A DNA stretch of 64,000 bases from Cetorhinus maximus (Eukaryota). How positions within the stretch are numbered: position 1 is the first letter of the stretch; every line of letters starts with the position of its first letter. The notes under the pieces were generated by a model. That model made no database searches, had not been told where the DNA came from, and saw nothing but the letters and a program-made list of their open reading frames with translations. The stretch covers positions 13,454,001 to 13,518,000 of the forward strand of contig NC_135898.1 of the NCBI RefSeq assembly GCF_964194155.1. The letters run 5' to 3'. This document shows, one piece after another, positions 21,920 to 63,043 of the stretch. The position numbers and the translations under genes were made by a program.

Positions 21920-22403
21920 TTTGTCCTGTAAGAAACAAATACGAGATAAGAACATCAAGGCAAAGTAGTGTCAAAAACTAATGTAAAAATACAACATGCA
22001 TGAAATACTCTCCACTGTCCCCTACACCTGCTTCCCTGCTCAAGCAGGAAAGATCTGGCATTTTACTCCAAAATCTCAGAGTATTTTCATACATGTATTA
22101 GTTGACAAAGGAAATTTATCATTAGTTCTATATGTATTGTACATTTGAATATGATTTTCACAAACAGACCATGCCTGGTTATGGTCTGATTGTTGTTATG
22201 TTTGGTCTCCCTCCTTCAGCTTTTCAATTTTTCTTCTCATCTTCTCATTTCTCACTTCTATATTTTGGGCTGAGCGTCAACTCGCAGACGTTTCCTCCTA
22301 CCTCTCCCTGGACCATGACCCCACCACAGAACATCAAGCCATTGTTTCCAGGACTGTCACTGACCTCATCTCCTCTGGAGATCTTCCTCCCACAGCTTCC
22401 AAC

Positions 22404-24011
22404 TTGATAGTCGCCCAACCTCGGACGGCCCGCTTCTACCTCCTACCCAAAATCCACAAACAGAACTGTCCTGGCAGACCGATCATGTCAGCCTGTTCCT
22501 GCCCCACGGAACTCATTTCTCGTTATCTTGACTCCCTTCTCTCTCCCCTTGTCCAGTCCCTTCCCACCTACATCCGTGATTCCTCTGACACCTTACGTCA
22601 CATCAACAATTTCCAGTTCCCTGGCCCCAACCGCTTCCTCTTCACCATGGATGTCCAATCCCTCTACACCTCCATCCCCCACCAGGATGGTCTGAGGGCC
22701 CTTAGCTTCTTCCTTGAACAGAGGCCCCAACAATCCCCATCCACCATTACTCTCCTCCGTCTGGCTGAACTTGTTCTCACACTGAACAATTTCTCCTTTA
22801 ACTCCTCTCACTTCCTCCAAATAAAAGGTGTGGCTATGGGTACCCGCATGGGCCCCAGCTATGCCTGTCTCTTTATGGGGTATGTGGAACATTCCTTGTT
22901 CCAGTCCTACTCCGGCCCCCTCCCACAACTCTTTCTCCGGTACATCGATGATTACTTCGGTGCTGCTTCATGCCCTCGTCGGGACCTGGAAAAATTTATT
23001 AATTTTGCTTCCAATCTCCACCCCTCCATCATCTTCACATGGTCCATCTCTGACACTTCTCTTCCCTTCCTTGACCTCTCTGTCTCAATTTCTGATGATA
23101 GACTGTCCACCAATATCCATTACAAGCCTACCGACTCCCACAGCTACCTTGACTACAGCTCCTCACACCCCGCTTCCTGTAAAGACTCCATCCCATTCTC
23201 TCAGTTCCTTCGCCTCCGTCGCATCTGTTCTGATGACGCTACCTTCAAAAACAGCTCCTCTGACATGTCCTCCTTCTTCCTTAACCGAGGTTTTCCATCC
23301 ACGGTCGTTGACAGGGCCCTCAACCGTGTCCGGCCCATATCCCGCGCATCCTCCCTCACGCCTTCTCCTCCTTCCCAGAAACATGATAGGGTCCCCCTTG
23401 TCCTCACTTATCACCCCACCAGCCTCCGCATTCAAAGGATCATCCTCCGCCATTTCCGTCAACTCCAGCATGATGCCACCACCAAACACATCTTCCCTTC
23501 ACCCCCCTTGACGGCATTCCGTAGGGATCGTTCCCTCCGGGACACCCTGGTCCACTCCTCCATCACCCCCTACTCCTCAACCCCCACTTATGGCACCTCC
23601 CCATGCCCACGCAGAAGATGCAACACCTGCCCCTTCACTTCCTCTCTCCTCACCGTCCAAGGGCCCAAACACTCCTTTCAAGTGAAGCAGCATTTCACTT
23701 GCATTTCCCCTAACTTAGTCTACTGCATTCGTTGCTCCCAATGCGGTCTCCTCTACATTGGAGAGACCAAACGCAAACTGAGCGACCGTTTTGCGGAACA
23801 CCTGCGGTCTGTCCGCAAGAAAGACCCAAACCTCCCTGTCGCTTACCATTTTAACACTCCACCCTGTTCTCTTGCCAACATGTCTGTCCTTGGCTTGCTG
23901 CATTGTTCCAGTGAAGCCCAACGCAAACTGGAGGAACAGCACCTCATCTTCCGACTAGGCACTTTACAGCCCTCTGGGCTGAATATTGAATTCAACAACT
24001 TTAGATCTTAA
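22404..24011 (+). CDS. Penelope-like RT/GIY-YIG ORF (N-terminally truncated, no internal stops)
   Basis: 535-aa ORF in the track. The frame stays open upstream to the insertion junction (AERQLADVSSYLSLDHDPT...). Confidence 0.85.
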   Translation: MIVAQPRTARFYLLPKIHKQNCPGRPIMSACSCPTELISRYLDSLLSPLVQSLPTYIRDSSDTLRHINNFQFPGPNRFLFTMDVQSLYTSIPHQDGLRALSFFLEQRPQQSPSTITLLRLAELVLTLNNFSFNSSHFLQIKGVAMGTRMGPSYACLFMGYVEHSLFQSYSGPLPQLFLRYIDDYFGAASCPRRDLEKFINFASNLHPSIIFTWSISDTSLPFLDLSVSISDDRLSTNIHYKPTDSHSYLDYSSSHPASCKDSIPFSQFLRLRRICSDDATFKNSSSDMSSFFLNRGFPSTVVDRALNRVRPISRASSLTPSPPSQKHDRVPLVLTYHPTSLRIQRIILRHFRQLQHDATTKHIFPSPPLTAFRRDRSLRDTLVHSSITPYSSTPTYGTSPCPRRRCNTCPFTSSLLTVQGPKHSFQVKQHFTCISPNLVYCIRCSQCGLLYIGETKRKLSDRFAEHLRSVRKKDPNLPVAYHFNTPPCSLANMSVLGLLHCSSEAQRKLEEQHLIFRLGTLQPSGLNIEFNNFRS

Positions 24012-24365
24012 ACTCCCCCTCCCCCCATCCCCACCCCGTTTCTTTTCCCCCCCACCCGCTTTTTTTTTCAATAATTTATATAGATTCTTCTTTCCCCACC
24101 TATTTCCATTATTTTTAAATCTAAAACTAAAACCTTTAGTCTTTCCACCCCACCCCCACTAGAGCTGTACTTTGAATATCCTGTATTCCATTCTTAATTA
24201 GCACTTTTCTCAGACAAAGACCACCACCTTCAACACCTCTTTGACCCTTTTGTCTCTGACATCTTTTGATTATCTGCTCACACCACACCCTCAATGTGTC
24301 TCTTCCCCCCCGCCCCCCACCCACCTTAAACCAATTTATATTTCTCCCTTGTTGAAACTATGCTG

Positions 24366-24406
24366 CAGTTCTGCCGAAGGGCCATGGAGGCTCGAAACGT
24401 TAACTG
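24366..24406 (+). ncRNA. Hammerhead-like motif with variant core (CUGCCGA) in the pLTR of the intact Penelope copy
   Basis: CAGUU-CUGCCGA-A-GGGCC(AUGGA)GGCUC-GAAA-CGUU-AACUG. Stems I and II are intact; the core has A6>C. Confidence 0.6.
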
Positions 24407-25005
24407 ATTTCTTCTCCGCCGATGCTGTCAGACTTGCTGAGTTTTTCCAGGTAATTCTGTTTTTGTTTTGTTTTGGATTTCCAGCATCCGCAGTAGCTTT
24501 TAGCTTTTTATTTTTATCTATATTTTGGGTGTTCGGATGCTCCAAAATCAAGTTTCACTCTCTCCCATCATATGAATGCTTATTTAGCACATTGATGCCA
24601 AAACACAAAAGTTTTTGACATACTTCCCATGGTAATACTTTTGATTTATCTACATTGCTTCTACACTTACAGATATCTCTGTAAGTAGCAGTGTGTCATG
24701 CAGCTCAGACACCAACCAGTAATGCAATAAGACATGGGAACCGAAACGACTGAGATCCCTGTCAATTTAACTCAATTCTGCGTGGCTATTTCTCATTCAC
24801 CTTTCGTGGGCCTGGAGTTTTGGGAACGGATTGTTGCAGCAGTGATCGAGAAATCACAGATTGAAACAGGAAGGCATCTGCAGTCGACACAAGGCACCTT
24901 AATTGTGGTTCAAAAGGTGGGACAGAAGGTTTTGGCTGCAGGTTGGGTGCCTGGTCCACTCCAGCCTTGATTGACTGCTGACACGCGCCGCCCGGTATTT
25001 GATAA

Positions 25006-32533: not shown

Positions 32534-32841
32534 ACTTGCTCGTCCTGCTTTCTACTCTTAATGCCATCATTTTCACATTCCTCAGCTAATATCACCACTG
32601 TCAACACCCCTTTGTCCTTTTGTCTATGACATCTTTGGCAATCTCTTCTTTACCTCCACCTTTCACTGGCCCTCTATCCAGCTCTCCCTGTCCCACCCCC
32701 CTCAACCAGCTTATATTTCACCTCATTTCTATATTTCTTAGTTCTGATGAAGAGTCACACGGACTCGAAACGTTAACTGTATTCCTCTCCGCAGATGCTA
32801 TCAGACCTGCTGATCTTTTCCAGCTATTTTTGTTTTTGTTT
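32534..32841 (+). mobile_element. Penelope-like pLTR-only insertion inside the Tx1/L1 remnant
   Basis: Closely matches the reverse complement of 59900-60170. Imperfect TSD CAAGGTT/CAAAGTT at 32527-32533 and 32842-32848. Confidence 0.8.
32740..32778 (+). ncRNA. Minimal type I hammerhead ribozyme motif (canonical core) in Penelope pLTR
   Basis: AGUU-CUGAUGA-A-GAGUC(ACACG)GACUC-GAAA-CGUU-AACU. Stem I AGUU/AACU, stem II 5 bp, loop-less palindromic stem III (AACGUU). Confidence 0.75.
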
Positions 32842-45508: not shown

Positions 45509-47125
45509 TCAGCTGACTGTATTATCTTTAATGCATTCCATCATTAAAGGACCCATGTCTCTTAATATTTTCTGATATTCCATAAGTGCCTGACCGTAAG
45601 AGTCACGCTGTGTTACAAAGGACCGGAAGAGGTTTATGGGCTCTGCATACAGAAGCATTTCTGGAATTCCCATTTGCTTTGGAAAAGTCTGATTTCCAAT
45701 CATAAATCGGTAGAGCCGTTTCTCATCCAAGCATTTTCCAAGATACTTCAAAATGTCTCTGAGCCTATGTTCCAGGTGACACTCATGCCAGTTTGAATAT
45801 GGCTGACTTAACAACAGATGCATAAGGACAGTCTTAAAAAAGTAGGACCCAAGAATGTTCCGCTGGTCTGGAGAGCTATGGAGCTTTTCAGTTAGAAAGG
45901 TCAATATTTGAAGGCACTTGAGGTGACAGCTGTTTTTGGGAACGCTTTTTGCCATGATTTTCAGAAATCTGTACTCGCAGACAGCACAGGATATGTGCCA
46001 GTAGGTGGTGGACGGCACTGTATTCTTGGTGTAATCAGGAAAGCTGGATACGAGATAGACGTCTGAATCCTTCAGCCTCACAGCAGGGAAGGCTTTAATG
46101 TAGATGTTTCGTCCCGACTGATACTGGACTTTTAAACCACAGCAACCAGTAATATTGTGGAAGGAAAGATCAAAATCATACTTATGACAAACTTTGTTCC
46201 AGGATTTTGCTAGTGCAACCCGGAACCATTTCAGTACTTTCTTGTAGTCCAAATACCACTCAGAACACACGATGGAAGCCAGGCAATTGGCACGCACATC
46301 AGCTTCAAACCTTTTACTGTGAATAAGACAAAGAACATCTCCTTCAAGTTCAGTACTTTTACATAGGCAGCCCAAGTCAGCACTGCCTGGTGTTACCATA
46401 ACAATCCGGCCGTAACTTTGCTTATCAGGTGGGAGGTCACAACAGCAGATCTCTGGTTTAAAGGAATATCCATCTTGCAGAAAAATTGGAACCAAAATAT
46501 CATACACCGAGGGCGTCTTACAGCCCCATTTCTCAAACTGACTACCAATGCCTACACAGTCTTCAAGGATCAGCTCAGAATCCCATTGGCAAATATTCCT
46601 ACAGGCTTCCAAGAGGTTGTCCACAAAACTTTCTACAAATTCACACGTCTGCATTGGCTCTTGGCTTACATTCTGAATACATGTATTATAAAATTGATCC
46701 AATACAGATTTGTCAGGAATATTCAAAATGTTGCTATAAATTCTTTGAGGAAATTCATTTTCCTTCTCCCCTTCCTCCTCTTCCTCACTGTGATAGTCTT
46801 GTGGTGTATGTGGCCACGTGTCCTGTCTCCACAGTTCCAAGAACAGAATTGTGACCATCAGGAGAATATTCCAGGTGTTCCAATCTATCTGTGTTGGGTT
46901 TTCTGCTTTTACAAATGTATTGACTTTCATTTCCTGTTCAGGATTATTCTTCTCATCCACTTCTTTCTGGAGCCGCTCCATCTCCAGCTTATACTTGTCC
47001 TCCTGCTCCTTCATCCTTGACTGGACCTCTTCACTCTCAACTTCATCACTCAGGAGGCGGGGGTGGTACAAACTTCCCGTGATCACCAGGAGGCACACGC
47101 TGAAAAGCCCTAATAGTGCTGGCAT
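45509..47125 (-). CDS. ITPRIPL1: Inositol 1,4,5-trisphosphate receptor-interacting protein-like 1 (538 aa; signal anchor, coiled coil, TM segment, Mab21/cGAS-like domain)
   Basis: Single intact ORF. Motifs recalled from ITPRIPL1: SEEEEE, TCEFVESFVDNLLEACR, LEDCVGIGSQFEKWG, YDILVP, GDVLCLIH, HKYDF, CHLKCLQI, SYFFKTVLMHLLL, AEPINLF. Splice acceptor tttatag|G directly before the ATG (47126). Adjacent to NCAPH as at human 2q11.2. Confidence 0.88.
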   Translation of the reverse strand: MPALLGLFSVCLLVITGSLYHPRLLSDEVESEEVQSRMKEQEDKYKLEMERLQKEVDEKNNPEQEMKVNTFVKAENPTQIDWNTWNILLMVTILFLELWRQDTWPHTPQDYHSEEEEEGEKENEFPQRIYSNILNIPDKSVLDQFYNTCIQNVSQEPMQTCEFVESFVDNLLEACRNICQWDSELILEDCVGIGSQFEKWGCKTPSVYDILVPIFLQDGYSFKPEICCCDLPPDKQSYGRIVMVTPGSADLGCLCKSTELEGDVLCLIHSKRFEADVRANCLASIVCSEWYLDYKKVLKWFRVALAKSWNKVCHKYDFDLSFHNITGCCGLKVQYQSGRNIYIKAFPAVRLKDSDVYLVSSFPDYTKNTVPSTTYWHISCAVCEYRFLKIMAKSVPKNSCHLKCLQILTFLTEKLHSSPDQRNILGSYFFKTVLMHLLLSQPYSNWHECHLEHRLRDILKYLGKCLDEKRLYRFMIGNQTFPKQMGIPEMLLYAEPINLFRSFVTQRDSYGQALMEYQKILRDMGPLMMECIKDNTVS

Positions 47126-48589
47126 CCTATAAACAATAAGCAGAGAACAGATGTTCAGAAGATGTGTAATTCACAGGGGGAACAGCATTAGTACATCTAT
47201 CCGAGTCTGAGCCCCCACTGAGAGACATTGCAAGTCTTTCAATAATTCATCCTCCTTCACTGTTTTGTCATACACACGGCTTCCTTTCCTGTCCTATACA
47301 GCCTCAAGCTGTCTCATAGGATTAGATGAGTGGGCAGCAATTATTGAACCCTGGGCATTGATGACGTCACTTGCACCACAAGTTGAGGGCCTCGCCCACC
47401 AGCCATGCATAGTTGGAAATTGTGGAACACAAATTTAAAAACGAATTGCTGAAAAATCATAGCTGGCACAAACAATTTCCTGATCTGCACTGGAATGGCA
47501 AACGTAGGAAAATCAGTCCTAAAAGGTCAGGGACTGCAAAAGTATAACTATACCACAACACCAAGTGTGCAAATACTCTCTCTTCTAGGAAACACAGGAA
47601 GAATCCCATTTGTACAGGTTTGGTTTATATTATAATATTTTGGCCAGTTGTGCTCTGGACTGCAGGCTTTTAATTTATTATCGAGGAATCTAATAGTTGA
47701 AGTGCAGGGCACCTCTATTGTAAAGAGTAGAAAAGGTCACAAGTCGCGATGAGGTAATGCCAAGCTTACACTTAGAACACTTGTAATTTACATGAGGAAG
47801 GAAACACAGTAAGGAGCTCCTTAATTAAACAATTTAATTAAACTTAAACAATTAACAATTGTTAATCCTTGAGAACAAATGAGTTAGAGTAGAAACACTA
47901 CATGAATCTTGATTTTAAAACCATGAGGATGTTGGGTGGAGGAAGCTAGTACAAGGCAGGAACAAGACAGGAAAGGGAAGAGACCTGACCAGAGAACTAT
48001 AAATAAAATATAAACAAGATAGATTGCAGTGGAGATGGGGAGGGAGGTAGGGAGGTGGGGGGGGGGGGCTGGTACAGGAGCCAGACAAGAAGGATCACAA
48101 GTCAGATATCAGACATATGAACTATGGTCCATCCAGCCTGTCCCAAACAATTGCAATTACTTGTCATAATATATACGCTCCCCACCCAAAAGCCATATAA
48201 ACTCTTGCAAAATGTAGAATAAAAACAAAAACTAAGGCTAATTATGGAGAATGTGCAAAATTCCTCCATTCATTTCTGACAACTCCCTGCCTATAGACAA
48301 TCACAACTAATCTAGAAGAGCACTCTTACCCTGATTAATTTTACACAGGGCCTACCTTTTGTATGAGATGAACTCCGCCCTAGCCAGAAAGAGAATTAGC
48401 TCTCGCTGTTCTCTGGGAGAAGAATTGCCTAAACGTCGATCAGAGTTCTGGCTTTATGTAACTTCATATTATAACTCCTTGTCCTCCCTAACTTATTTAG
48501 TTGAAATAAGCTGTCTACACAAACACAATGTATTCTCTTCATCATATTATAAACCTCGGTAAAAATCACCCCTTAATACAGAGAATTGT

Positions 48590-58300: not shown

Positions 58301-61300
58301 AACTTCTGTCAGTGAGCTACAAACTGCATCAGGTCCAAATTGCAACTAACTCTCTCAGCAACCACCCAGATAAACTGAAACCAAAGAAACTCCCTAAGCC
58401 TGCTTCAGGCTGTCCTCAAACCAACCTTTAAGTTAATTATCCTCATTTACAACTTATGCTTTGATCTGTTGAAGGAAATGGGTTTTACAACCTTTCAGGG
58501 TTTACTGAATGCTTTTAAATTAATTTAACTGCTAACTCCCAAAATTAAAACATCTCTCTTCTTGCAAGCATTGTAGACATCACGTCTCCAGCTGTTTAGC
58601 TAAGTAAGCCCATCTGCTGTTTTATAACTCTATCTCTTCTGTTCTGACTCTATTAAACAAACATGGGTCACCTTTTGAGCTGCTATTTCTTGAGATTTTT
58701 CTAGCAATCTCTAAAGCCGGAATTGTAATTACCTTGCCTACATCTTAAGGCAACATGGCCCCAACCTTTTAAATGGAATAGGTTCCAAGCTTGCTTTAAC
58801 TGCACTTAACCCATTTTTCATAGTTAATTTTTATTTTTAGGAATTAAAGTTTATATTCCAAAATGCATATGATCTGGAGCAGGCTGGAGGAGATTACAAA
58901 GATAGGGAGGGGCGAGGCAGTTGGAATTTGGTAAAAAGGGATGAAAATTTTTAAATGGCTTTGTTTATCTGGGAGCCAGTGTAACGAAGCGAGCACACAC
59001 GGACGATGGATGAACAGGACTTGGTGCAAGTTAGGACATGAGCAGCAGATGACCTCCAGTTTACAGAAGTTGAACATGGGAGGCCACAAGCAGCGTGTTT
59101 GAATAGTCAGGTTTGGAGATAACAAAGGCGTGGATGATCATGTTTATTATCCTTTGTTTCATGCTGTTTCTATGTTATTACTACAGGCATTTGATGCTGG
59201 TGATTATTTTCCAATATGGGGAACCTGTCTGGGACTTCAGTTACTGTCTGTGCTTACTGCTGGGAAGAACCTGCTCACAAATACTGACTCAGAAAACATT
59301 GCTCTCCCACTTAATCTGACTAATGGTAGGAGTACTTTGTGACAGAGTATTATGATTTGGGGATTACCATGTAAAGAGGATTTGGCAGCAATGTGTTGCA
59401 TTACAAATTTAAGCAGGTTTATATCAGATGTACAACACTGGTGCAGCACAGTTTTATGTCTTGTGTACATGCGAAGCAAGTTGTATGGTTAGAATAAGTC
59501 TGCATCAGCTTGGGTCAGTTGGCAAGACTCATCATAGGTCGGAAGATTATCATTTGAGTGTATTATCTCAGTCGACTTGTGTTTATAATGTAGCGGAAGT
59601 GTTGTATTGTGAGAGGTGCCATCTTTCAGATGAGAGGTGAATGAGTCCTTCCCACCAGGATGTTAAATACACTATCCGTAGAACAAAAACATTCCCTCTT
59701 CAACTTGTGTCACCTGACAAAGGATGTGAACTAGCCATTTATCTCATTCCTGTTGGTGGGTTATTGCTGGCACTAAGTGGCAGCATTTAGCTGCATAACA
59801 ATGGTCAATGGATTCTGAAAATGATTTCACGATGCGATGTGCTTTGAGATATTTCTATGTGATAAGGTATCACATAAATACAAACACTGTTGTAGTAATA
59901 AAAACAAAAATACCTGGAAAAACTCAGCAGGTTTGACAGTATCTGCAGAGAGATACAGTTGACATTTCGAGTCCGTATGACCCTTCATCAGAACTAAGAC
60001 ATATAGAAATGAGATGAAATATAAGCTAGTAGAAGGGGGTGGGACAGGAGAGCTCGATAGGGGGCCAATGATAGGTGGAGGCCAAGAAGAGACTGCCAAA
60101 GATGTCATAGACAAAGGACAAAGGGGTGTTGATGGTGGTGATATTATCTAAAAGATGTGCTAATGGGGACATTAAGGGAAGCAAGCTAGTGGAAGATGGC
60201 CCGAGTGCAGGTGGGGTGGGGGGAAGGGATCGAAATGGGCTAAAAGGTGGAGATGAAACAATAGATCAAAATAAATTTAAAAATAGGAGGGAAGAGAAAA
60301 AAATAGTTGTAAAAAAATAATAATTATAAATTATTGGAAAAAGGGGAATCAGAAAGGGAGCGGGGACGGAGGAGAGAGTTCATGATCTGAAATTGTTGAA
60401 CTCAATATTAAGTCCGGAAGGCTGTAGAGTGCCTGGTTGGAAGATGAGGTGCTGTTCTTCCAGTTTGCGTTGAGCTTCACTGGAACATTGCAGCAGGCCA
60501 AGGATGGGCATGTGGGCATGAGAGCAGGGTGGTGTGTTGAAATGGCAAGCGACACAGAAATCTGGGTCATGCTTGCGGACAGACTGAAGGTGTTCTGCAA
60601 AGCAGTCACCTGGTCTGCGTTTGGTCTCTCCAGTGTAGAGGAGACCCCATTTGAAGCAGCGAATGCAGTAGACTAAATTGAGGGAAGTACAAGTGAAATG
60701 CTGCTCCACTTGAAAGGAGTGTTTGGGCCCTTGGATGGTGAGGAAGGGGGAAGTAAAGGGGCAGGTGTTGCACCTTCTGCGATTGCATGGGAAGGTGCCA
60801 TGGGAGGGGGTTGAGGTGTAGGGGGTGATGGAGGAGTGGACCAGGGTGTCCCGGAGGGAACGATCCATGCAGAAAGCCGCCAGGAGGGGTGAAGGGAAGA
60901 TGCATTTGGTAGTGGCATCATGCTGGAGTTGGCAGAAATGGCGGAGGATGATCCTTTGAATGCGGAGGCTGGTGGGGTGATAAGTGAAGACAAGGGGGAC
61001 CCTATCATGGTTCTGTGAGGGAGAGGAAGGTATGAGGGCGGATGCGCGGGAGATGGGCCGGACACGGTTGAGGGCCCTGTCAACCACCGTGGGTGGAAAA
61101 CCTCGGTTAAGGAAGAAGGAAGATATGTCAGAGGAACTGCTTTGGAAAGTGGTGTCATCAGAACAGATGCGATGGAGGCGAAGGAACTGAGAGAATGGGA
61201 TGGAGTCCTTACAGGAAGCGGGGTGTGAGGAGCTGTAGTCGAGGCAGCTGTGGGAGTCAGTAGGAGTCAGTGATGAATATTGGTGGACAGTCTATCACCA

Positions 61301-63043
61301 GAAATTGAGACTGAGAGGTCAAGGAAGGGAAGGGAAGTGTCATTATGGACCACATGATGGAGGGGTGGAAATTGGAAACAAAATTAATAAATTTTTCCAG
61401 ATCCAGACGGGAGCATGAAGTGGCACCGAAGCAGTCATACCGGAGAAAGAGTTGTGGGAGGGGGCCTGAGTAGGACTGGAACAAGGAATGTTCCACATAC
61501 CCCATAAAGAGACAGGCATAACTGGGGCCCATGCGGGTATCCATAGCCACACCTTTTATTTGGAGGAAGTGAGATGAGTTTAAGGAGAAATTGTTCAGTG
61601 AGAGAACAAGTTCAGCCAGACGGAGGAGAGTGGTGGTGGATGGGGATTGTTCAGGCCTCTGTTCGAGGAAGAAGCGGAGAGCCCTCAGACCATCCCGGTG
61701 GGGGATGGAGGTGTAGAGGGATTGGATGTCCATGGTGAAGAGGAGGCAGTTGGGGCCAGGGAACTGGAAATTGTTTATATGATGTAGGGAGTGAGAGGAA
61801 TCACAGATGTAGGTGGGAAGAGACGGGACAAGGGGAGAGAGAATGGAGTCAAGATAGCAAGAAATGAGTTCCGTGGGGCAGGAACAGGCTGACATGATCG
61901 GTCTACCGGGACAGTCCTGTTTGTGGAATTTGGGTAGGAGGTAGAAGCGGGCCATCCGAGGTTGGGAGACTATGAGGTTGGAAGCTGTGGAGGGAAGATC
62001 TCCAGAGGAGATGAGGTCAGTGACAGTCCTGGAGACAATGGCTTGATGTTCAGTGGTGAGGTCATGGTCCAGGGGGAGGTAGGAGGAAGTGTCTGTGAAT
62101 TGACGCTCAGCCTCTGCGAGGTAGAGGTCAGTGCGCCAAACAACAACAGCACCACCCTTGTCAGCGGGTTTGATGACAAAGTCAGAGTTGGACCTGAGAG
62201 AACGGAGTGCGGCAAGTTCAGAAAGAGACAGGTTAGAGTGGGTGAGAGGAGCAGAGAAATTGAGACGACTGATGTCACACCGACAGTTCTCAATGAAAAG
62301 ATCAATGAAAAGACCACGTCAACTGTATCCCTCTTCACAGATGCTTTCAGACCTGCTGAGTTTTTCCAGGTATTTTTGTTTTTGTTCTAGATTTCTAGCA
62401 TCCGCAGTATTTTGCTTTTATCTTACTGTTGTAGTATTGTTCAGTAAAATAGAGTGAGAGAAATGTTGGTTCACTCTGCACTAAGTTGCTTATGTGAGTC
62501 ATGCCAATGAGATTCAAGAAGTCCCCTCTGCAGGGATGATGTAAATGCCAAGTACTTTCTGCTGGTGTGCACTGCAGGGAAAATTGATGCCAGACTGGGT
62601 CTAAGCTACAGTTCAAGGCAGCAATGCTGGACTTTCTCTTCTGTTTTCCTAAGAAGCCATCAGTGTAAGTCTTTGCTTGAATATCATGGGGTCTTTCCCA
62701 AGGACAACTCGTGGCTGAGATCAGCAAATTTGTCTCTTTGGACAATCTGGACTTCTGTTTAAAGGGCCAATGGGTTAGTGCTATCAATTTTAAAAGTTGC
62801 AAATGTGGGCCTATTTGTCTATTATTATTCAAACCAAGCAAATATTTTCTTTTCACCAAAACATTCTCTCTCATGAGAGATTGATTTCTGATCAATTGAA
62901 TTTAATTTTAACTCCATTTCTCTCTCTCCCCCGCAGCTGCTGCATCTAGTAAAATGTTTCAGAAATTTCCTCCAGATGTGTACCATGCTTTATCCAGTGA
63001 ACCACTCACTGGGAACTTCCATGACTTTTCTATTTCTGTGAAG
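52369..63043 (+). CDS. GGH: Gamma-glutamyl hydrolase (peptidase C26) family gene, exons 1-6; continues beyond the window
   Basis: Exons 52369-52465, 54491-54605, 55680-55730, 56962-57046, 59187-59325, 62937-63043, all GT-AG and in phase. Signal peptide MAQAVLLSVLLLFGCSS, then RPIIGILAQE, YIAAPYVKYLESAGCRVVPV, SINGIIFPGG, DYFPIWGTCLG (catalytic Cys) and PLTGNFH. Whether this is the orthologue or a paralogue of human GGH is unresolved. Confidence 0.9.
53750..54285 (+). mobile_element. CR1 3' fragment in GGH intron 1
   Basis: QFFSPHLRKDILALE...LSYDERLSKLG.YSLEFRRLRGDLIE followed by a CR1-type 3' UTR. Other CR1 scraps at about 26300-26730, 15670-15930, 56210-56520 and 63590-64000. Confidence 0.78.
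57335..59140 (-). mobile_element. L2-like LINE 3' fragment interrupted by an approximately 1.2-kb LTR-like insertion (about 57655-58870)
   Basis: aacaacaac tail at 57330; minus-strand LASLHWLP motif (58844-59125). The intervening unrelated AT-rich block begins TGTCAC. Boundaries approximate. Confidence 0.5.
57927..57967. repeat. (CT)n microsatellite plus C-run
   Basis: Read directly. Other simple repeats: (CA)n about 12872-12893, poly-G about 48057-48068 and 57618-57630, poly-C about 51710-51721. Confidence 0.85.
59898..62424 (-). mobile_element. Penelope-like retroelement, frameshifted copy with inverted pLTR piece (62316-62424, +); in GGH intron 5
   Basis: ORF pieces 61257-61955 (RT) and 60380-61087 (GIY-YIG) closely match the 22404 ORF. 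12-bp TSD ACTGTTGTAGTA at 59886-59897 and 62425-62436. Both ends are pLTR 3' tails facing outward. Confidence 0.92.
59957..59995 (-). ncRNA. Minimal type I hammerhead ribozyme motif in Penelope pLTR
   Basis: Reverse complement reads AGUU-CUGAUGA-A-GGGUC(AUACG)GACUC-GAAA-UGUC-AACU, with a GUC cleavage triplet. Confidence 0.72.

Follow-up and report, generated by a model that had tools for sequence, protein, structure and literature searches.

Does a hammerhead ribozyme still cut once its core has lost A6? The question is raised by a 41-nt motif in a 64,000-nt stretch of the Cetorhinus maximus genome (NC_135898.1, positions 13,454,001–13,518,000 of the forward strand; hereafter the window), where a Penelope-like element (PLE) carries the core CUGCCGA in place of the canonical CUGANGA. 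A preliminary description of the window proposed either a subfamily-wide variant ribozyme or a fold kept after cleavage had been lost. The first proposal stands, and the second is now less favoured because fragments of ribosomal RNA (rRNA) are fused to related copies at the predicted cut. On balance we consider it probable that the motif is the minimal hammerhead in the pseudo-long terminal repeat (pLTR) of a young Neptune-type PLE and that its C6 core is slowed, still cutting and dimeric, probably with help from protein.

Position 6 of the core is C in almost all copies of a young PLE subfamily

The layout first reported for the motif (stems I and II intact, core CUGCCGA) was re-found in both coordinates and pairing. 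Stem I is formed by positions 24366–24370 and 24402–24406, an unpaired A (24378) follows A9, and stem II pairs 24379–24383 with 24389–24393 (G-C, G.U, G-C, C-G, C-G) around a 5-nt loop. Positions 24394–24400 correspond to G12–U16.1 and 24401 to U17, and the motif lies 355 nt 3' of the stop codon of an open reading frame (ORF) encoding a reverse transcriptase (RT) and a GIY-YIG domain. Its folding energy relative to shuffled sequences was within chance (z = −0.88), and an Rfam search of the window returned zero hammerhead matches. It was homology, not folding energy or Rfam, that led us to accept the motif as real and to reject a chance match, since it can be aligned, position by position, with the A6 motifs that older copies within the window carry (32739–32779, and about 59950–59990 on the minus strand).

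Like the minimal hammerheads of metazoan PLEs, the motif lies in the pLTR in sense orientation to the ORF, has type I topology with a 4–5 bp stem I, G10.1-C11.1 and an unpaired base after A9, lacks helix III and carries a palindromic stretch (15.1–16.1) suited to dimer formation. The available text of Cervera and de la Pena (2014, PMC4209133) describes the same placement, absence of helix III, palindrome (15.2–16.2), unpaired base between 9 and 10.1, G10.1-C11.1 and 4–5 bp stem I, with U3-A8 as the sole core variant, whereas here position 6 is C (earlier U). Because its core has C6, we filed the motif as a variant and not as a canonical PLE minimal hammerhead; C at this position is the core variant of the Bcep176 type.

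The 4.0-Gb assembly was searched for further copies. Exact matches to the window's subfamily, with positions 6 and 7 left open, numbered 779, of which 778 had C6, one had U6 and none had A6. CUGCCGA is thus subfamily-wide, as had been suggested, and a private mutation of one dead copy within a CUGANGA subfamily was rejected. A wider motif pattern gave 43,294 matches genome-wide (5,399 A6, 16,323 C6 and 21,572 U or G), with G6 accounting for two of the 100 matches listed. Both patterns undercount old copies, since they require two intact CpGs. Anchors placed outside the motif matched the young lineage 10,038 times (98 C6 and 2 U6 among the 100 matches listed) and the preceding stage 8,108 times (no A6 among the 100 matches listed). 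The lineage carrying the C6 hammerhead is a very active transposable element, and A6 loss predates the window's subfamily by far and extends well beyond it. Descriptors that fix CUGANGA miss most of the family's motifs here, 37,895 of the 43,294 matches being without A6. The descriptor given in the available text of PMC4209133 fixed the catalytic boxes, so that copies with a changed position 6 would be missed.

A tree of the last 0.25–0.9 kb of the ORF (43 copies) took the form of a ladder, with tip lengths of 0.03–0.06 for A6, 0.02–0.06 for early U6, 0.006–0.023 for later U6 and 0–0.021 for C6 copies. The youngest clade (98/89) was C6 throughout. These sequence comparisons suggest that the states followed the order A6, U6, C6, with the youngest last; we can only infer this order, because the tree was midpoint-rooted, its bootstrap had not settled, the split between A6 and early U6 was weak (80/84) and one A6 copy, L150, was basal to the later clade. 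The lineage represents a natural allelic series of A6, U6 and C6 in which intact young ORFs occur. In L150, L148 and L149, stems of the U6/C6 type exceptionally carry A6 cores, which may be back-mutations, recombinants or a short-lived branch. A small group (L044, L128, L336 and L401) has G at position 6, so all four bases occur there in the family.

rRNA fragments are fused at the predicted scissile bond

Four independent insertions carry a piece of 18S or 28S rRNA joined exactly at the predicted scissile bond (position 1.1), all in sense–sense orientation. At locus L196, position 1.1 of a C6-type tail directly follows a 273-nt piece with a 97% match to the rDNA arrays, and a 16-bp target duplication flanks the whole; the piece was named 28S via the rDNA arrays (Rfam on the array locus), as Rfam gave the fragment itself no score. 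The other three carry 18S pieces that have a single rRNA end in common. The C21 event is an inverted pair whose tail is of the type found in the window's subfamily, the C24 event is present three times through segmental duplication, and the C7 event, newly found from the rRNA side, has a tail type with U6 in five of six copies and G6 in one. Three of the four tails are therefore of the C6 type and one is of the U6 type. The junctions show 0–1 nt of microhomology, and each rRNA end is a pyrimidine.

Searching from the rRNA side, for this common 18S end followed by non-rRNA sequence, gave eight matches; six join a PLE, all at 1.1 and representing three events, and two join no PLE. Among loci not picked by their rRNA, fusions accounted for 3 events among the 105 junctions lying no more than 3 nt from the site versus 0 in 579 elsewhere (P = 0.0035), the rRNA reference comprising all of 18S and only the 5' part of 28S. 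Joining requires a PLE RNA with its 5' end at 1.1 and a hammerhead cut yields exactly such an end, so the fusions fit cutting. As indirect evidence for cutting of the site in cells, they point to a motif that is probably still being cut, at a low rate.

It is improbable, in our assessment, that cleavage was lost and the three-way fold retained for binding of the element protein or a host factor, with the rRNA junctions arising from a host nuclease or from RT pausing. Four of the five rRNA fusions seen fall on the exact scissile bond, with the minimal microhomology given above, and H17 has changed at the subfamily level only between U and C, both cleavable. Furthermore, the protein-binding site of the anole PLE maps downstream of the motif, according to the available text of PMC11167929. 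The same text does lend a retained fold some support, in that core mutations left the in vitro insertion of the anole PLE unaffected and RNA-seq gave no ends at the site; a folded core would also constrain the same bases, and most templates were uncut in C6 and A6 copies alike.

The recurrence of one 18S rRNA 3' end in three independent insertions (L528, L530 and L532) suggests a preferred break point in the 18S rRNA of germ cells. Further junctions were also observed. At L549 and L550, two copies on one contig (C241), non-element sequence with a start-codon-like end, possibly an mRNA piece, is joined at 1.1 of a youngest-type tail. At L523 (C1:197.99 Mb) a 28S piece is fused inside the core of a U6-type motif, and about 900 bp from this fusion lies a 31-nt 18S-like stretch joining no PLE.

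The remainder of the core is unchanged between subfamilies

Changes from the early U6 stage to the later subfamilies were counted by eye among the 100 matches listed per search. At the subfamily level, none of the 12 other core positions had changed since the U6 stage, versus six of the seven free positions (N7, H17 and four of the five loop bases; Fisher test, P = 2.6e−4). In total, the U6 stage and the window's subfamily differ at 10 positions of the motif, none of them among the 12 core bases. All five changes in stem II are pairing-compatible, including U-A to U.G to C-G with the intermediate present, and in stem I a single disruption of the outer pair was followed by its re-formation. Ten single copies among the 100 matches listed had lost core bases, nine via CpG transitions; this CpG decay strikes G8, G12, C15.2 and G16.2 and is fixed in no subfamily seen. 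Neutral yardsticks over the same span were 12/137 for fourfold sites of the ORF (0.088) and 74/336 for the untranslated region (UTR). Judged from these counts, the core outside position 6 looks constrained, and we give this moderate weight.

The same counts bear on two further readings. One is that the motif has become dispensable and is slowly decaying, with A6 merely the first core base lost and too little time elapsed for the others. The low fourfold divergence since the U6 stage is in keeping with this, as is the spread of Naiad PLEs without canonical hammerheads (PMC8557442). We nevertheless regard it as unlikely, given that the 10 differing positions spare the core, that the stem II changes are compensatory and that in the youngest subfamilies the site is marked by rRNA fusions. 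The other holds that the C6 core is inactive and that cutting of C6 RNAs takes a mixed dimer in which an older A6 transcript gives the catalytic strand. Subfamilies are compatible with one another in stem I and the palindromic stem III, at least 5,399 intact A6 motifs are still in the genome, A6 and C6 copies hardly differ in the 3' half of the motif, and mixed dimers would produce cuts that are rare and fall on the exact bond, as observed. However, they would free C3, U4, G5, G8, A9, G12, A13 and A14 of the C6 strand, none of which has changed at the subfamily level, and we place little credence in this arrangement.

A slow, dimeric hammerhead as the preferred explanation

The explanation that we favour, a slowed C6 hammerhead that still cuts, would operate as follows. 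A tandem transcript would hold two motifs, which the palindromic stretch could pair as a dimer. C6 would slow the cleavage chemistry, such that a small share of the RNAs is cut while most escape and become templates, which must be intact over the downstream motif. Reverse transcription would start in the tail downstream of the motif and have to cross it uncut, and slow cutting may thus be tolerated or even favoured. The fusion junctions would represent true ribozyme-made 5' ends, to which rRNA fragments were presumably attached by an RtcB-type ligase or through template jumping from end to end. More tentatively, the passage from A6 through U6 to C6 could be a two-step down-tuning in which the element's own protein makes a crippled core cut, with the rRNA–PLE chimeras as a fossil record of in vivo cleavage. 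If true, such chimeras could be used to date and compare ribozyme activity over subfamilies and species.

Several findings weigh against continued cutting. There are four events only, with two distinct rRNA ends, and the cut-off 5' half, hence the core of that very molecule, is missing from the insertions, so that the core has to be taken from the tail type. The L523 fusion, a chance find in a U6 copy, lies 27 nt upstream of the site, and off-site fusions therefore do occur. Under neutrality, zero core changes would be expected with a probability of about 0.35 (ORF yardstick) or about 0.07 (UTR). At −19.5 kcal/mol the dimeric fold lies above the predicted minimum of −25.6 kcal/mol, so help for the dimer is likely needed, and single changes in the CUGA turn had low activity and no rescue in a saturation study (PMC9901934, available text). 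With inversion microhomology taken into account, the site showed no clear surplus of plain 5' junctions, and the RNA data comprised assembled contigs only, without usable ends or splice joints. Lastly, 47 of the 78 young copies spanning the ORF start (78 of 232 matches, some of them tandem duplicates) read through the upstream predicted cut and one ends within 3 nt of it.

A mostly-A6 control gave a comparable result, with 54 of 83 copies reading through the upstream site and one ending within 3 nt (90 of 187 matches, seven dropped as not ORF starts). A pile-up of 5' ends at the cut was therefore absent from both sets (C6, 1/78; mostly-A6, 1/83), and this test cannot separate A6 from C6. All copies with both ORF end and tail were reverse-transcribed across an uncut motif. 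As most copies spanning the ORF start pass the site, cut RNA formed a small share of the templates. An excess of plain junctions at the cut was likewise rejected (129 purine-flanked matches versus 113 and 202 at neighbouring positions), and 42 of the 51 junction rows examined were breakpoints, mostly inversions with microhomology, which we did not use as support.

Relation to known ribozymes and retroelements

The preliminary description also held the motif to be a candidate for an undescribed mechanism. This was not upheld, as A6C, dimer action in PLEs and protein assistance are all known (PMC3088659, PMC7151607, PMC4209133, PMC11167929; here and below, cited papers are represented by the parts of their text available to us). 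A6C is a natural, slow, Mn2+-favoured core variant (PMC3088659, PMC7151607), found in the hammerhead of phage Bcep176, where one or two hydrogen bonds are lost (PMC3088659) and kobs is 0.004 per min at 1 mM Mg2+ versus 0.31 with Mn2+ (PMC7151607). Bcep176 carries one full phage hammerhead, whereas the motif here has no helix III and has become fixed in a lineage of retrotransposons that counts at least 16,323 C6 copies.

The prevailing model has PLE minimal hammerheads act as dimers (PMC4209133), and in the anole PLE the hammerhead needs the element protein in order to cut (PMC11167929). That ribozyme, the Poseidon PAc hammerhead of Anolis, is likewise a PLE minimal hammerhead with uncut RNA as the main insertion template, but it belongs to a different PLE clade and the available text mentions no A6 change. 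Protein-assisted cleavage has been demonstrated for PAc and is proposed here by analogy. In vivo cut ends were not found in PAc, the one element studied biochemically (PMC11167929), and the role of hammerheads in endonuclease-bearing PLEs is stated as unclear (PMC8557442). The rRNA fusions resemble U6/LINE-1 chimeras formed via RtcB ligation, in which a cellular RNA with a cyclic phosphate is joined to a retroelement 5'-OH end and then retrotransposed (PMC6789731). In those chimeras the LINE-1 junction varies, whereas here it is fixed at the ribozyme site and a role for RtcB is presumed. Our literature search found neither a PLE lineage fixing U6 or C6 nor rRNA fusions at a PLE hammerhead site, a result that is not firm, as supplementary lists lay outside the search.

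The host element and other features of the window

Features of the window are collected in Table 1. The element has a single ORF of 917 aa with RT plus, at its C terminus, a GIY-YIG domain, and occurs as tandem units and inverted 5'-truncated copies, as in endonuclease-bearing PLEs of the Neptune clade. In locus L034, RVT_1 was matched above the cutoff (E = 2e−7) and GIY-YIG just under it (E = 3e−4), and a C-x4-C-x2-C stretch in the translation agrees with the CX2-5CxxC linker between RT and endonuclease (PMC8557442). Domain layout and linker, as described in the available text of that paper, point to the Neptune clade. The tandem unit is 3,291 nt, and in tandem copies the tail runs into the ORF start 153 nt past the cut. 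A second, canonical hammerhead was not seen elsewhere in full-length units in the 10 loci scanned.

Table 1 Features of the window, with positions counted from its first letter.
Position	Strand	Feature	Basis
24366..24406	+	Minimal type I hammerhead motif, C6 core	Pattern match, homology
24371..24377	+	Core CUGCCGA; C6 = 24374, N7 = 24375
24379..24393	+	5-bp stem II with 5-nt loop II; pairing preserved where subfamilies differ in the stem
24401..24402	+	Predicted scissile bond U17/1.1; rRNA fusions in other copies at the equivalent bond
22268..24011	+	3' two thirds of PLE ORF (RT, Cys linker, GIY-YIG endonuclease), 5'-truncated, open to stop
24012..24365	+	3' UTR / upstream part of pLTR	Subfamily alignment
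24407..24519	+	pLTR tail
32569..32841	+	Older truncated relative, A6 core (CUGAUGA at 32744)
59897..62430	-	Older relative (84%), A6 core, CpG change at 15.2, broken ORF; inverted 5' piece 62316-62430

The window copy was said to carry no inactivating ORF mutation. This is correct for the portion present and not for the whole ORF, as the copy is truncated 5' at about 22268 and is without about 337 of the 917 codons and the upstream pLTR; it therefore cannot be a source element. Intact 917-aa ORFs with C6 were found in L034, which belongs to the window's subfamily and has a downstream motif plus an inverted 5' piece, and in L315 and L319 of a CUGCUGA sister subfamily, with direct repeats on both sides. 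CUGAUGA cores, earlier ascribed to a sister subfamily, are indeed present, but their carriers are better read as older relatives (84% and 71% identity; long tree tips).

Two tandem arrays, L033 (C1:45.24 Mb) and L324 (C8:109.93 Mb), are built from units of 267 nt and 244 nt that each contain a C6 motif, the tail and the first ORF codons, and are retrozyme-like products of the element. Short, mostly fold-back pLTR insertions (L212, L213, L219, L225, L226 and L233; G000, C1–C2) show clusters of A-to-G changes in each arm, the pattern that reverse transcription of A-to-I-edited element RNA would leave. In A6 and early U6 subfamilies, the cut is followed immediately by a branch-point-like word, a pyrimidine tract and an AG (window positions 24400–24425 compared with 32770–32800). 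This AG is lost in later U6 and all C6 subfamilies, and a splice acceptor after the cut site may have been lost or moved in them. Elsewhere in the window, positions 45509–47170 of the minus strand hold a single-exon host frame of 553 aa with a Mab-21 C-terminal domain, which we take to resemble ITPRIP-like genes.
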